Below are positions 6,001 to 9,000 of a DNA stretch of 13,363 nucleotides, piece after piece. This DNA comes from a virus (lineage: Duplodnaviria; Heunggongvirae; Uroviricota; Caudoviricetes). Position numbers: made by a program. The DNA is taken from the IMG/VR virus record IMGVR_UViG_2648501498_000007; one strand, 5' to 3'. Positions within the stretch are counted from its first letter, which is position 1. Every line of letters starts with the position of its first letter.

Positions 6001-9000
6001 CACCATTGGCGATAAAAGCATTTACCTGTATGACCTACGCCGCATGGATGAAATCATGGAGGCTCTTGATAATCGTTCGTCGATGGATTGGTGTGTTGCT
6101 GTTCATGATATGAATGCAGGGTTTGATGAAAAGATTTTGTTCCCCTCATCAGTTGAAAGCACTGCGGGTTAAGGAGTAACACATGACCACTATTACCAAA
6201 GAACGTATTGAATTGTTCATTAAATTTTCAGGAGGCGGTACTGTGAGTGAAATTAGCTATCAGGCTTCAATTACCGCTGGCATTCGCATCAAAGGAGAGG
6301 AGCATGGAAATAAAACCAGAGGATGAGTTAAGCAATATCGTTTTATTTCCGGTAAAAGAGGATGACCCTCGTAATCAGGTTAATTTTCTTTATGAGCCAT
6401 CGGAAAGACCATATTGTCATCACGCCTCTGTCCGGGTTGACGAAAAAGAGCGTCAGGTCCGCTGTAAAATCTGCGGTGCAGTTGTGGAACCATTTGACTG
6501 GATGCTCTCTGTGGCGAAAAGAGAAACCAGACTGGCAGATGATGTAAGGCTCTTGCGTCAGGAGGAGCGGGAAAGGCGAAAAAATATAGAAAAGCTAATT
6601 CAGATTGAGCGTAACGCGAAAGCGCGGATACGCAGGGCGACAAAATCCAGAACTGAATAATTAAATTTAGCTCTGTTAAAAATTTAATCCTTAACCGGAG
6701 GGATTTCTGCACCCTCAGAACATCAGGAGGCCGCCCGAAAGGGCGGTAGTTAAATGCGAAAGTTTAAAATAATTATTGAAACGGGAATAGCCGGTGGAGA
6801 TTTCGAGGATGAATTCGAAGTGGATGATGATGCGACGCCTGATGAAATACATGACGAAGCAAAAGATATTTTCTTTAACTACTGCAATTACTCATATCAC
6901 GAAATAAAAGACGAAGAGGAAGAACAAAATGGCTGATTTTGGTTCAACTAAATACAACGTCGGTTTTGAAGAATGGCATGAACTGTTAATGGACTATGCA
7001 GAGTTACGTGGTGGCAGTGCTGCTGATGCTGAAGCATGGCGTGATGATTATGAAGCAGGAAAAACTCCGGTCGAAGCATATTGTGATGAGTGGGGCGATG
7101 AATGAGCGAGGTTAATTATCAGGAAGGGCATGAAACGGCGGGGCAAGCAAAAACAGTGGCATGGCGATATCGCTACGTGAAAAAAAGGCGTTACGGACTT
7201 TCAGGGGAAGTAGTGGTCTGGTGACTGGAAATATGTACCGAAAAAAGAGGATTGTAACGACAGGCCGAACTATGAAATTCAGGCCTTATTCACTGCCCCG
7301 CCAGTCCCGGTTACATCAGAAGAACTGGTTAAAGCTGTGCACTTTTATGAACAACTAAAATGCGAAAATCCACCAGCATCCGGAAACCTGATTACAGATT
7401 CCCAGATAAGGCAATGAGCTACCTGGCGCAGAACGGGCTGATAAGTATGGGGAATGTTTTACGATGAATATTTAGACTAAAGAGTTTGTAACGCTATGTA
7501 AGTGATTTTTTCTGGTTTAGATATTTATATGTCCGGCTAAATTGAGGTGTGTTTAAATGTTATTGCACATTGATTGTAGGGGGAATAATGAAAAACGCAT
7601 TGCAGTTTTTGTTTGTTGCGTTCTGGTTGTTCGCATCATGTATGCCCATCATCTTCACAGCAAGGTATATGGAAAAAGTTGATGTTTTGATATTAATGTT
7701 TGGACATATAAATGCCCTTTTTTTAGGGGTGTTCATGGCGGTCATGTGCATTGAATACTGGCGGTAAATACAGCGAACGCCATTGGTTTAGTTGGATATT
7801 TACTGTGCCGGACAAAAACGGTTTGCGGGGAAATCTTAGTTAAGTAGAATGACTGCGGGTGCTTGAGGCTATCTGTCTCAGGCATGAACACCAAAAGGCA
7901 GATAGAGAAAAGCCCCAGTTAACATTACGCGTCCTGCAAGACGCTTAACATTAATCTGAGGCCATATCTATGCGACACATAGAGATTAGCCTCTTACGGA
8001 CCGAAAGGTCAAGGAGAAGCAGGCTATGAAGCAGCAAAAGGCGATGTTAATCGCCCTGATCGTCATCTGTTTAACCGTCATAGTGACGGCACTGGTAACG
8101 AGGAAAGACCTCTGCGAGGTACGAATCCGAACCGGCCAGACGGAGGTCGCTGTCTTCACAGCTTACGAACCTGAGGAGTAAGAGACCAGGCGAGGGGGAA
8201 ATCCCTCGCCACCTCTGATGAGTCAGGCATCCTCAACGCACCCGCACTTAACCCGCTTCGGCGGGTTTTGTTTTTTCCTGGCATTCTGGTTTACAATTCG
8301 CACGTCAGCCTGAACACCTGACACCTGCTGCGCCAGTAGAGAAAACAGATGGCGCACAAAACCAAATTTCACAATTCTGATACCGACCTTGCCATCCGGC
8401 ATGGGCGGCGTTCACACGCATTTAAAACCGACTGGTACCAACACCCACCATGTACTGAAGAACAGGCCGAATGGCTAATTCATAACTACCGCAGACGCGG
8501 ATACGAGATTAAGAAAGCCCTCAGCCTCGATTATCGTCACTGGATAATCTATGTCAGGCTCCCTTATTCCGAACGCCCACCGCGTCCGTCCCGCACATTC
8601 CAGCAACGCATCTGGAGGTAACGTGCGGGTATTACTTCGACCTGTTCCGGTACCGGAACTTGGGCTGGTGGTGCTAAAACCGGGCCGTGAATCCATGCAG
8701 GTATTTCATAACCCTCGAGTTCTGGTGGAGCCGGAACCGAAAAGCATGCGCGGTCTGCCGTCCGGAGTCGTTCCTGCTGTTCGCCAGCCGCTGGCGGAGG
8801 ATAAATCATTACTGCCATTTTTCAGCGATGAGCGGGTGATTCGTGCTGCTGGTGGTGCTGGTGCATTGTCTGACTGGCTGTTACGCCACATTAAATCCTG
8901 CCAGTGGCCTCATGGTGACTACCATCACAGTGAAACCGTCATACATCGTTACGGTACCGGCGCGATGGTGTTGTGCTGGCACTGCGACAACCAGCTGCGT

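Follow-up and report, generated by a model that had tools for sequence, protein, structure and literature searches.

A hok/sok-type toxin-antitoxin locus with a minimal mok frame beside a small membrane-protein gene in an Escherichia coli lambdoid prophage

The window, that is, the whole 13,363-nt stretch of viral DNA analysed here, belongs to an E. coli lambdoid prophage, and its positions 7812-8276, in the early-right (nin-like) region, very probably hold a complete type I toxin-antitoxin module of the hok/sok kind. The module is best described as the intact form of K-12 hokD/relF and as a close relative of hokW-sokW of the Stx phage 933W/Sp5. It is an ordinary copy of an already known kind of module, with a shortened mok and a neighbouring unannotated small membrane-protein gene. 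The original prediction of a Hok-family type I locus with a mok-type coupled ORF and a separately inserted membrane-protein gene is supported by sequence, Rfam, Pfam and RNA folds.

Results

Elements of the locus

Besides the genes themselves, a hok promoter (putative), tac, fbi, an anti-SD box, a 3' stem-loop and a terminator were found. An entropy profile over 71 unique relatives delimits a conserved module at ~7840-8265. The gene order is Qin-like: hok is followed by an ORF at the rem position, a DUF968 (ydfU-like) gene and a putative Q-like DUF1133 gene. A RefSeq genome that is 100% identical across 7400-8300 names the hok gene hokD, and in the RefSeq records inspected for this prophage lineage mok, the Sok RNA and the adjacent small-protein gene all lack annotation. 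The features are as follows.

7468-7809, no strand assigned: AT-rich cassette of 342 bp, one of the alternative inserts that separate the upstream gene from the hok module
7588-7767, plus strand: gene of a 59-aa two-helix small membrane protein, from the ORF listing, with the Shine-Dalgarno sequence AGGGGGA at 7578-7584
7823-7850, plus strand: putative hok promoter, -35 TTGCGG at 7823-7828, 16-nt spacer, -10 TAGAAT at 7845-7850
7857-8276, plus strand: full-length mok-hok mRNA with predicted ends, the 5' end from the RF01794 start and the R1-type alignment, the 3' end from the terminator
7857-7868, plus strand: tac (translational activator element) GGGTGCTTGAGG, nearly invariant among relatives
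7909-7918, plus strand: ucb / anti-SD box AAAGCCCCAG, paired to 7956-7962, the region of the mok SD, when the full-length RNA is folded
7919-7954, plus strand: long hairpin in the hok mRNA, mirror of the Sok terminator stem, from the folds
7958-7961, plus strand: mok Shine-Dalgarno GAGG, 8 nt upstream of the mok ATG
7967-7983, plus strand: Sok-target hairpin with the mok start codon, TCTATG-CGACA-CATAGA, in the hypervariable "allele" segment
7970-8029, plus strand: mok in minimal form, 19 codons (MRHIEISLLRTERSRRSRL), its UGA overlapping the hok AUG (AUGA)
7976->7908, minus strand: predicted Sok antisense RNA, ~69 nt, with a single-stranded 5' tail, a long hairpin and a GGGGCUUUU tail
8012->7983, minus strand: putative Sok promoter by positional homology to sokW, -35 TTGACC 8012->8007, 18-nt spacer, -10 TAATCT 7988->7983
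7999-8010, plus strand: GNRA-loop hairpin GACC-GAAA-GGTC just 5' of the hok SD, also the spacer of the Sok promoter
8011-8016, plus strand: hok Shine-Dalgarno AAGGAG, read from the sequence and kept in all but few aligned relatives
8026-8181, plus strand: hok (HokD toxin), 51 aa; Pfam HOK_GEF, PHROG 251, RefSeq name hokD
8189-8210, plus strand: GC-rich 3' stem-loop GGCGAGGGG-GAAA-TCCCTCGCC, presumed protective end of the processed mRNA
8231-8243, plus strand: fbi (fold-back inhibitory element) CCTCAACGCACCC, 12 bp with tac including one bulge
8250-8276, plus strand: intrinsic terminator of the hok mRNA, from the terminator scan, common to K-12 hokD

The toxin gene

The hok gene is intact, as had been proposed. 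Its product matches Pfam PF01848 (HOK_GEF) with 82.9 bits (cut-off 22; E = 1.2e-23) and PHROG 251 with E = 2.8e-33. The coding sequence is nucleotide-identical to K-12 hokD (b1562), the protein corresponds to WP_000813254.1, and it is 92% identical to HokW. HokD is among the published toxic controls, and HokW is toxic and neutralised by sokW; by analogy with these two homologues, the first of them an identical protein, the Hok encoded here is expected to be toxic.

Promoter, folding switch and 3' end of the hok mRNA

The leader at 7857-8028 matches Rfam family RF01794 on the plus strand over the full model 1-157 with 106.7 bits (E = 6.6e-24), well above the gathering score of 59; the model extends on the sense strand from +1 up to the hok AUG. 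Apart from sok, a search of Rfam at a permissive E-value returned isrK over the hok 3' UTR (26 bits at a threshold of 50), two snoRNA models from nematodes, rsmX and a model of a CRISPR repeat; all of these were rejected as sub-threshold noise. The putative hok -10 element lies 7 nt 5' of the Rfam model start (7857), and both hexamers are kept in 933W while the spacer differs. A strict consensus promoter scan of 7350-8400 yielded zero sites, so that neither the hok nor the Sok promoter was reported, and a relaxed pattern that catches the Sok promoter is not enriched, with 5 matches versus 7 expected from shuffles. Because the strict scan was blank and the relaxed pattern is no rarer than chance, both promoters were called only by positional homology.

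In the minimum free energy (MFE) fold of 7857-8274, tac 7857-7868 pairs with fbi 8231-8243, and the mok SD is sequestered by 7913-7916 within the anti-SD box. When the RNA is shortened in silico to end at 8216 or 8220, the MFE structure flips to a stem between tac and ucb (7910-7916), and for an end at 8212 this stem lies within 0.4 kcal/mol. This pairing behaviour of ucb agrees with the R1 model (PMC9841398). Open-form covariation among 41 diverse leaders gave 10 pairs with double changes versus 3.5 in shuffles, and 0/500 shuffles reached 10. The fbi element is found at the same position in relatives, 45-50 nt from the stop codon, and across genera tac and fbi differ by compensatory changes (GGGUGC/GCACCC versus GGGCGC/GCGCCC and GGCGC/GCGCC). 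The concern that the locus might be degenerate is not supported, since it has its fold-back elements, and in silico both the tac/fbi pair and the anti-SD box follow the R1 pattern.

Downstream of hok, the 3' stem-loop at 8189-8210 is kept in 933W and K-12 with sequence changes that appear pairing-preserving, and the equivalent R1 stem-loop protects Tr-hok mRNA (PMC9841398). The terminator expected after hok is indeed there and is the sole terminator-like site in 7350-8400.

The predicted antisense RNA and its target

A Sok RNA had been expected on the minus strand at ~7930-8030 without being pinned down. By comparison of sequences its predicted position is now 7976->~7908, with a putative promoter that fills most of the expected zone, because promoter and start sit exactly at the tested -10 position of sokW. 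The ends were transferred from the sokW annotation in 933W (1594-1664 of our locus L001), and the predicted start is the G at 7976. The predicted fold of the RNA has -30.8 kcal/mol and z = -5.5. Elements of R1 Sok presumably lie at positions matching the predicted promoter and start. For the relative, mutation of the sokW -10 element TAACCT (primers YO-421/422, "pro-less" construct) unleashed HokW toxicity, and a Northern blot probed for the homologous segment detected SokW RNA in Sp5. The promoter spacer has 18 nt here versus 17 nt in 933W and in the R1-type locus.

The hairpin GCGTC/GACGC, suspected earlier to be an element of the antisense gene, is the apex of the predicted Sok terminator stem, with one correction of its extent: it ends at 7944 and not at 7946 (arms 7929-7933 and 7940-7944). 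The apex GCGTC-CTGCAA-GACGC (7929-7944) also tops the mirror hairpin in the hok mRNA and corresponds to 16 nt that the Rfam model lacks. It is kept in the hokD/hokW clade, with a compensatory variant ACGTC/GACGT in one relative (L106).

Entropy within the module is highest at the target hairpin (0.64-0.70 bits per column). In relatives this segment occurs in 24 variants and ~10 major allele groups, nearly all of them hairpin-forming. The YUNR U-turn is absent here because the 5-nt loop CGACA contains no U; several sister alleles likewise lack YUNR and others have it (e.g. CUGA in 933W). Franch et al. are said to have described in 1999 a YUNR U-turn motif in the R1 Sok-target loop as a kinetic feature. 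For the hok/sok family the motif is accessory, not defining. The idea that hok loci residing together in one genome always differ in their Sok allele was rejected: L031 and L054, contigs of one genome, share an allele.

Intact module or silent relic

It is conceivable that the module is structurally intact and functionally silent, passively carried and never reaching killing levels of Hok, like the chromosomal hok genes of laboratory E. coli. We consider this unlikely. The precedent of the chromosomal hokA, hokB and hokC, which are reported neither to mediate post-segregational killing nor to be activated by rifampicin, speaks for such a relic, while the nearest relative, hokW-sokW, is a working pair with an induction phenotype. 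A mok cut to 19 codons and a target loop devoid of the U-turn motif might likewise be taken as signs of decay; yet mok translation in R1 is necessary only as far as the hok initiation region (PMC9841398), and all known regulatory elements are present and fold as expected. The state of hok itself can be read from 80 fetched loci with the 19-codon mok, 71 of which were assessable. Among these allele-B loci, hok is broken in 6/71, whereas it is intact in 65/71, and Hok is 100% conserved in 48/71 independently sampled loci. In two relatives inspected an IS element sits at the hok start codon, and coverage counts hint that such insertions may be common; repeated inactivation by IS elements could equally mean an active, costly toxin.

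The upstream cassette and its membrane protein

In the cassette-less loci L008 and 933W, homology to the window ends at 7467 and restarts at 7810, and the intervening 74 nt encode a single-TM ORF of 25-27 aa instead. Across 7440-7800 the GC content ranges from 31 to 38%. Copies of the cassette with 95-100% identity occur in 1569/5426 complete E. coli genomes, and none of the 40 records listed has an annotated feature under the cassette. The hydrophobic 59-aa ORF was recovered where it had been noticed, at 7588-7767, with its Shine-Dalgarno sequence. A non-coding stretch does precede it, and this stretch is shorter than first stated, ~120 bp (7468-7587) rather than 170 bp, because 7420-7467 is the conserved tail of an upstream frameshifted gene. 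Of the proposal that the gene is an independently transcribed insert, the insert holds, since the cassette replaces another small ORF; independent transcription does not follow, as the scan of 7350-8400 revealed neither a promoter nor a terminator of its own. The gene is co-oriented with the early-right operon.

Profiles of Pfam, PHROG, NCBIfam and PADLOC gave no match to the 59-aa ORF, and a full-text literature search with the peptide sequence returned no papers. AlphaFold2 predicts a helical hairpin (H2-25 and H31-58, pLDDT 75), for which the best E-value of a Foldseek search against BFVD, 1.1, is uninformative. Relatives comprise unnamed E. coli/Shigella proteins and one paralogue clade. 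This paralogue, found by an exhaustive HMMER search in E. coli, has the same length of 59 aa, is 44% identical without gaps and lies in another genomic context; it is annotated only as a hypothetical protein, and a check for linkage to a hok locus found none. The 59-aa ORF is therefore supported as a real gene.

That the ORF is instead a chance frame in an AT-rich spacer, the cassette being non-coding, is very unlikely. Such a frame would account for the missing RefSeq annotation in the inspected records, for the lack of profile matches and for the promoter that was not found, and also for the word-indexed protein search, where only near-identical or broken copies appeared and the seemingly divergent ones were frameshifted or IS-broken. 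Within the clade, 11 nonsynonymous, 0 synonymous and 5 indel variants make a dN/dS-style count uninformative or negative. The coding question is settled by the exhaustive search and not by these within-clade counts: 14/26 residues conserved between the paralogues use different codons, mismatches by codon position (24/18/30) peak at position 3, and 5' of the start codon the two paralogue loci cannot be aligned. Moreover, variants are sparser in the ORF (0.089 per nt) than in the flanks (0.21 per nt), the strong SD is kept or even improved to AGGAGGA in variants, and the frame is intact in 43/43 cassette copies adjoining allele-B leaders. A minus-strand ORF at 7560-7751, named "hornerin" in one phage record, was set aside for lack of profile support, and the plus strand is preferred because the paralogue supports the plus-strand ORF. 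We regard the cassette as a separate exchangeable module that very probably encodes a two-helix membrane protein.

The mok frame

As originally claimed, the ORF upstream of hok has 19 codons, and its TGA (8027-8029) overlaps the hok ATG (8026-8028). The spacing from the mok start to the hok start is 56 nt here; relatives have 57 nt when mok is in frame and 58 nt when it is in the +1 frame. The hairpin at 7999-8010 carries compensatory differences relative to TGCC-GAAA-GGCA in 933W and GCGC-TTT-GCGC in the R1-type locus, and the extra base in this hairpin shifts the mok frame. The 56-nt spacing class also occurs in the hokC-like loci L097 and L099, where the 19-codon mok arose independently. 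The 19-codon form was found in at least 120 viral contigs. It is shorter than the forms of 55-71 codons and still spans exactly the part required in R1, where GAGG is likewise the mok SD (PMC9841398).

It is also very unlikely that the 19-codon ORF is not a working mok and that hok is translated from its own AAGGAG or not at all, with Sok acting through RNA decay only: the good SD of hok, a frame that differs from the in-frame and +1 classes and a Mok peptide that varies between alleles would agree with it, whereas all alleles retain the mok ATG, the GAGG and the anti-SD box but are not constrained in mok frame or peptide, R1 mutagenesis shows that Hok synthesis requires the mok start codon and translation reaching the hok start (PMC9841398), the AUGA stop-start overlap is a classic coupling arrangement, and the 19-codon class arose twice independently.

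Discussion

Following the R1 model (PMC9841398), we infer from sequence, folding and homology how a complete module of this kind would work. The weak promoter at 7823-7850 would give rise to an mRNA of ~420 nt starting at 7857. In this full-length mRNA, tac would pair with fbi and the anti-SD box 7909-7918 would cover the mok SD at 7958-7961; we propose that the full-length mRNA is therefore untranslated. Slow 3' trimming toward the stem-loop at 8189-8210 would remove fbi, whereupon tac could pair with the anti-SD box and open the mok ribosome-binding site. Sok, transcribed from a promoter inside the mok frame, would pair with the mok start region, block mok and trigger cleavage of the duplex. 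If Sok falls, ribosomes would translate the 19-codon mok through the hairpin and the SD preceding hok. Because the mok UGA overlaps the hok AUG, Hok would, as we propose, be made by coupling, and the 51-aa inner-membrane peptide would then damage the membrane. By analogy with hokW-sokW, the role is likely to be prophage addiction or an aid to host lysis upon induction. Transcription reading through from the early-right promoter at induction would have the same direction as hok and oppose the Sok promoter.

We further speculate, with considerable doubt, on two points: that the hypervariable segment 7962-7985, which takes in the 5' tail of Sok, the target hairpin and the first codons of mok, represents specificity ("immunity") alleles of Sok, and that the slot upstream of hok is dedicated to exchangeable small membrane proteins. 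If such alleles existed, co-resident prophage hok/sok modules could act independently, the many IS-decapitated copies that keep Sok and mok without hok would be orphan antitoxins, and the 19-codon mok would be a by-product of inter-allele recombination. A dedicated slot would imply that its occupant, either the two-helix protein of 59 aa or the one-helix peptide of 27 aa, modulates membrane-directed prophage functions.

The consequences beyond annotation are small. In this prophage lineage, the gene that RefSeq labels "hokD" in over a thousand E. coli genomes very probably belongs to a complete module. The 59-aa membrane protein and its paralogue stand outside all profile libraries searched. 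A minimal mok that stops on the hok start codon offers a natural control for the statement that mok is needed only up to the hok start.

Comparison with known systems

The closest known system is hokW-sokW (with mokW) of the Stx2 phage 933W and the Sakai prophage Sp5, with 91% nucleotide identity over 7814-8253. It is an experimentally tested type I pair that aids phage release after mitomycin C. Both modules are borne by lambdoid prophages and share the leader, the extended Sok stem, fbi and the position of the Sok -10 element. In contrast to the 19-codon mok, out of frame with hok at 56 nt between the starts, mokW is a 70-codon in-frame extension of hokW with 57 nt between the starts. The Sok-target hairpin and the Sok 5' end belong to different alleles, and the Sok promoter reads TTGCCT, 17 nt, TAACCT in 933W compared with TTGACC, 18 nt, TAATCT here. 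In 933W the module is encoded on the opposite strand, close to the right end of the phage genome, has no counterpart of the terminator found here and is preceded by a 27-codon ORF in place of the 59-aa cassette.

K-12 hokD (relF) in the cryptic prophage Qin has the identical hok coding sequence and a nearly identical 3' UTR with stem-loop, fbi and terminator, followed in the same order by the rem-position ORF, the ydfU (DUF968) gene and the Q-position gene. In K-12, everything 5' of the hok SD, namely promoter, tac, ucb, mok and Sok with its promoter, is replaced by relBE. Thus, K-12 hokD is a truncated remnant of the module that is complete here.

With hok/sok/mok (parB) of plasmid R1 and R1-type IncFII plasmids, the locus shares the architecture and the order of elements: tac, anti-SD box, Sok-target hairpin with the mok AUG, hairpin, hok SD, hok, 3' stem-loop and fbi. 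The R1-type Hok is only ~45% identical to the Hok described here. Mok has 70 aa in R1 (PMC9841398) and, in frame, 71 codons in the R1-type locus compared. R1 has a longer 5' leader hairpin and a Sok stem without the 16-nt apical extension; it is plasmid-borne, and its post-segregational killing is proven.

The chromosomal hokC/mokC (gef) loci are members of the same family, with the tac sequence and the hairpin GACC-GNAA-GGTC before the hok SD in common. Two hokC-like copies, L097 of E. ruysiae and L099 of E. whittamii, likewise carry the 19-codon mok and its stop-start overlap. Loci of the hokC/mokC type differ from the module described here by a Hok of ~80-82% identity, a short Sok stem and a context in the core chromosome instead of a prophage.

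Identity and setting of the hok locus

The hok gene located by the original prediction at 8026-8181 is present (Pfam HOK_GEF, E = 1.2e-23), as is the terminator behind it, which was recovered by a terminator scan. The Pfam match and a score of 106.7 bits to Rfam RF01794 place the locus far beyond chance. The Rfam model, named 'sok', matches the sense strand from the 5' end of the hok mRNA to the hok AUG; thus, it identifies the leader and not the antisense RNA as such. The elements assigned to the module (7812-8276) are as follows.

7823-7828 and 7845-7850, plus strand: putative hok promoter, -35 TTGCGG and -10 TAGAAT
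7857-7868, plus strand: tac, the 5' pairing element of the hok mRNA
7976 to 7908, minus strand: Sok antisense RNA, predicted
7909-7918, plus strand: anti-SD box (ucb)
7958-7961, plus strand: mok SD, GAGG
7970-8029, plus strand: mok, 19 codons
7988 to 7983 and 8012 to 8007, minus strand: putative Sok promoter by homology, -10 TAATCT and -35 TTGACC, 18-nt spacer
8026-8181, plus strand: hok
8231-8243, plus strand: fbi, the 3' pairing element of the hok mRNA
8250-8276, plus strand: terminator

The window comes from an E. coli lambdoid prophage, of which it represents the early and nin-like region, and encodes a cI-like repressor, cro, replication genes, DUF968 (ydfU-like), RusA, a putative Q-like DUF1133 protein, a methylase and two tRNAs. 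The tRNA genes (12274-12346 and 12447-12520, plus strand) lie downstream of the methylase gene; tRNA genes downstream of Q are common in Stx-like lambdoid phages. The chromosome of E. coli CFSAN061770 is 100% identical to 7400-8300, and DNA related to this stretch was found in 4955 of 5426 complete E. coli genomes, at a median of two places per genome, and in 79 phage records, among them 933W, VT2-Sakai and Rac. Among the plasmid matches, many non-mobilizable 'plasmids' of about 90-120 kb from E. coli, Salmonella, Klebsiella, Shigella and Enterobacter carry hokD-type modules of 88-90% identity; these replicons may be phage-plasmids.

The motif targeted by TadA is UACG, which is formed in the window by the Tyr47 codon TAC of hok and the following G (8164-8167, plus strand), and A8165 would be the predicted edited base. 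According to a recent preprint, the hokC, hokD and hokE mRNAs are recoded in a way that resembles the TadA A-to-I editing of hokB, here to cysteine at position 46.

Fold and conformational switch of the hok mRNA

Both hexamers of the putative hok promoter are kept in 933W with a different spacer, and the Rfam model starts at G7857, 7 nt after the -10 hexamer. In the predicted fold of the full-length RNA (7857-8274), tac pairs with fbi and the mok SD is paired with 7913-7916. When the 3' end is cut to 8216 or 8220, the minimum-energy fold becomes a stem between tac and the anti-SD box; with the 3' end at 8212, this fold lies at most 0.4 kcal/mol above the minimum. The same closed-to-open switch is that of R1 as summarised in PMC9841398. 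Among relatives, the tac-fbi pairing is found at a constant distance from the stop codon and co-varies, with GGGUGC/GCACCC in Escherichia and Kluyvera, GGGCGC/GCGCCC in Photorhabdus and Pantoea, and GGCGC/GCGCC in the R1-type locus. Across 41 diverse leaders, 10 pairs of the open-form structure are changed on both sides in comparison to 3.5 in shuffles, and the covariation value was reached by none of 500 shuffles.

Two further features overlap the 3' part of the transcript. The 3' UTR at 8190-8271 (plus strand), made up of the stem-loop, fbi and the terminator, matches isrK (RF01394, a Salmonella prophage sRNA) below threshold, with 26 bits where the gathering score is 50 and E = 0.0004 on the short stretch; this could be a chance resemblance of two hairpins or a distant relationship. 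A minus-strand 59-aa ORF across fbi and the terminator (8223-8402), listed in RefSeq as 'hypothetical protein' and in one phage record as 'mobile element protein', lies over these conserved RNA elements and was probably called in error.

The predicted Sok antisense RNA and its alleles

The ends of Sok were transferred by alignment from sokW, which is annotated in the 933W record (locus L001, 1594-1664, minus strand). The predicted RNA folds into a free 5' tail and a long hairpin (-30.8 kcal/mol, z = -5.5). The GCGTC/GACGC hairpin proposed in the original prediction exists and forms the apex of this stem, with its end at 7944 instead of 7946. Compared with the Rfam model, this hairpin (7929-7944) is an insertion of 16 nt, and it is common to the hokD/hokW clade; in relative L106 a GC-to-AU change preserves the pairing.

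The -10 hexamer of the putative Sok promoter occupies the same position as TAACCT of Sp5 sokW, which Takada et al. altered with primers YO-421/422 in a promoter-less construct, unmasking HokW toxicity. Their Northern probe YO-592 spans the Sok segment homologous to that of the window. A strict scan returned no promoter at all, and a relaxed pattern does catch the Sok promoter, yet is no rarer than chance; the assignment is by homology and not by statistics. The U-turn, an accessory kinetic motif, is absent from the Sok-target loop of the window allele.

Column entropy peaks at 7960-7985 with 0.64-0.70 bits in comparison to about 0-0.1 in the CDS. In relatives L006-L220 the segment 7962-7985 occurs in 24 variants that form about 10 major allele groups, named ones including the window allele, the 933W allele and the CTCTACAC allele, while the rest of the module is at least 90% conserved. 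Nearly all alleles retain the hairpin and the ATG. The hypervariable segment includes the 5' tail of Sok, the opening codons of mok and the stretch from the Sok start to its -10, and it may set the specificity between Sok and hok. Two loci of one genome can carry the same allele (L031 and L054).

The mok reading frame

As had been noted from the sequence, the TGA of the 19-codon mok ORF overlaps the ATG of hok. Among the 138 fetched loci, the distance between the two start codons falls into three classes, so all three possible frames are found in nature across the family.

Classes of mok-to-hok start codon distance
57 nt: in frame with hok; Mok of 68-71 codons; 933W, K-12-type hokC, R1-type locus
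58 nt: +1 frame relative to hok; Mok of 55-69 codons; Kluyvera and others
56 nt: stop over the hok start; 19 codons; window allele and hokC-like loci of E. ruysiae and E. whittamii

The source of the frame changes are length differences of 1-2 nt in the target hairpin (TCTATG-CGACA-CATAGA in the window) and in the GNRA hairpin before the hok SD, which is GACC-GAAA-GGTC in the window and TGCC-GAAA-GGCA in 933W, a compensatory difference. The mok ATG, the mok SD and the anti-SD box are constant, whereas frame and peptide vary, which fits the published mutagenesis of R1, where mok translation was needed up to, but not beyond, the hok start. In the hokC-like chromosomal loci L097 (E. ruysiae) and L099 (E. 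whittamii) the 19-codon mok has arisen separately, about 56 nt upstream of hok at 1501.

An unbiased scan found the exact window-type leader in at least 120 viral contigs. Of the 80 contigs retrieved as loci, 71 allowed an assessment of hok: 65 have an intact gene, which is identical in 48, and 6 have a broken one.

The upstream cassette and its small membrane protein

In relatives lacking the AT-rich cassette (342 bp, 7468-7809), homology to the window ends at 7467 and restarts at 7810. The 74 nt between these limits form a single-helix ORF of 25-27 aa (MTWPEA...YSICRWG), start-stop coupled (ATGA) to the preceding gene and just upstream of the hok promoter (L008, 1206-1289; 933W, L001, 1420-1503). 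Its variants comprise 12 synonymous and 16 nonsynonymous changes, and one carries an in-frame 2-codon deletion. The 933W record leaves the ORF unannotated. In the window it is shortened to MNI-stop (7464-7475), with the 342 bp of AT-rich DNA instead. The gene directly upstream of the cassette (7102-7467, plus strand) carries a frameshift and an internal stop in the window prophage and is a pseudogene in RefSeq. Intact relatives still share its conserved C-terminal end (...AMSYLAQNGLISMGNVLR).

Of 5426 genomes, 1569 contain the cassette at 95-100% identity. It adjoins several different Sok alleles and has no annotated feature beneath it in the 40 records listed. In phage PhiR42_1 (L139, 1180-1826) the hok start codon (window 8027) is the exact limit of homology to the window, with transposase genes after it, and the same holds for E. 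coli 2018-10-1CC (L140, 2411-3057); cassette, Sok and mok are kept in both and hok is gone. The cassette occurs in 1553 records and together with full hok in only 1070, and from these counts such a loss may be a common arrangement.

The 59-codon hydrophobic ORF is present at 7588-7767 (plus strand) behind an AT-rich stretch as proposed, although the non-coding part measures about 120 bp rather than 170 bp, since 7420-7467 still belongs to the frameshifted gene, as its conserved end. Variants within the clade (11 nonsynonymous, no synonymous, 5 indels), at lower density in the ORF than in its flanks, are weak evidence for coding, and no profile library searched gave a match. An exhaustive HMMER search detected a 59-aa paralogue of 44% identity without gaps, in which 14 of 26 shared residues use different codons, mismatches by codon position are 24/18/30 and the upstream flank is unalignable. 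On the strength of this paralogue, we regard the ORF as a genuine gene for a small membrane protein, which AlphaFold2 models as a two-helix hairpin (pLDDT 75). Thousands of E. coli contigs contain the paralogue, and K-12 MG1655 lacks it; it lies in a decayed island that has ttcA (the Rac attachment site) on one side and uspF on the other, next to fragments of integrase and ABC-3 permease genes (L262, E. coli CP042246.1, 5001-5180; L261, 829-1008). The suggested independent transcription of the 59-codon ORF is not supported, since scans found neither a promoter nor a terminator of its own and it is co-oriented with the early-right operon. We found no link of this gene to hok and no sok match near the paralogue.

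Comparison with known systems

All sequence elements of the family are present in silico, with complementarity, covariation and a predicted conformational switch. The toxicity of HokD and HokW, neutralisation by Sok and the requirement for mok translation are taken from homologues; we infer the activity of the window copy, the ends of Sok and the 3' processing. At induction, read-through from the early-right promoter would have the direction of hok and oppose the Sok promoter. By analogy, the module may serve in addiction or help with lysis at induction.

RefSeq already labels the locus hokD, and loci of this type have been investigated in Stx phages; mildly new are only the naturally occurring minimal mok, the variability of the alleles and the small-protein family, which is unannotated. 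Among studied systems, mokW/hokW/sokW of 933W/Sp5 is the closest relative, with 91% identity in DNA and 92% in Hok to the window. HokW-sokW proved to be a functional type I toxin-antitoxin pair that increases the release of phage after mitomycin C. The hok CDS of K-12 hokD/relF is nucleotide-identical to that of the window, the 3' UTR is nearly identical, and the Qin prophage of K-12 and the window module share the same gene neighbourhood. In K-12, however, relBE stands in place of everything upstream of the hok SD, a region that the window keeps. Thus, the window holds a complete ancestor-type module.
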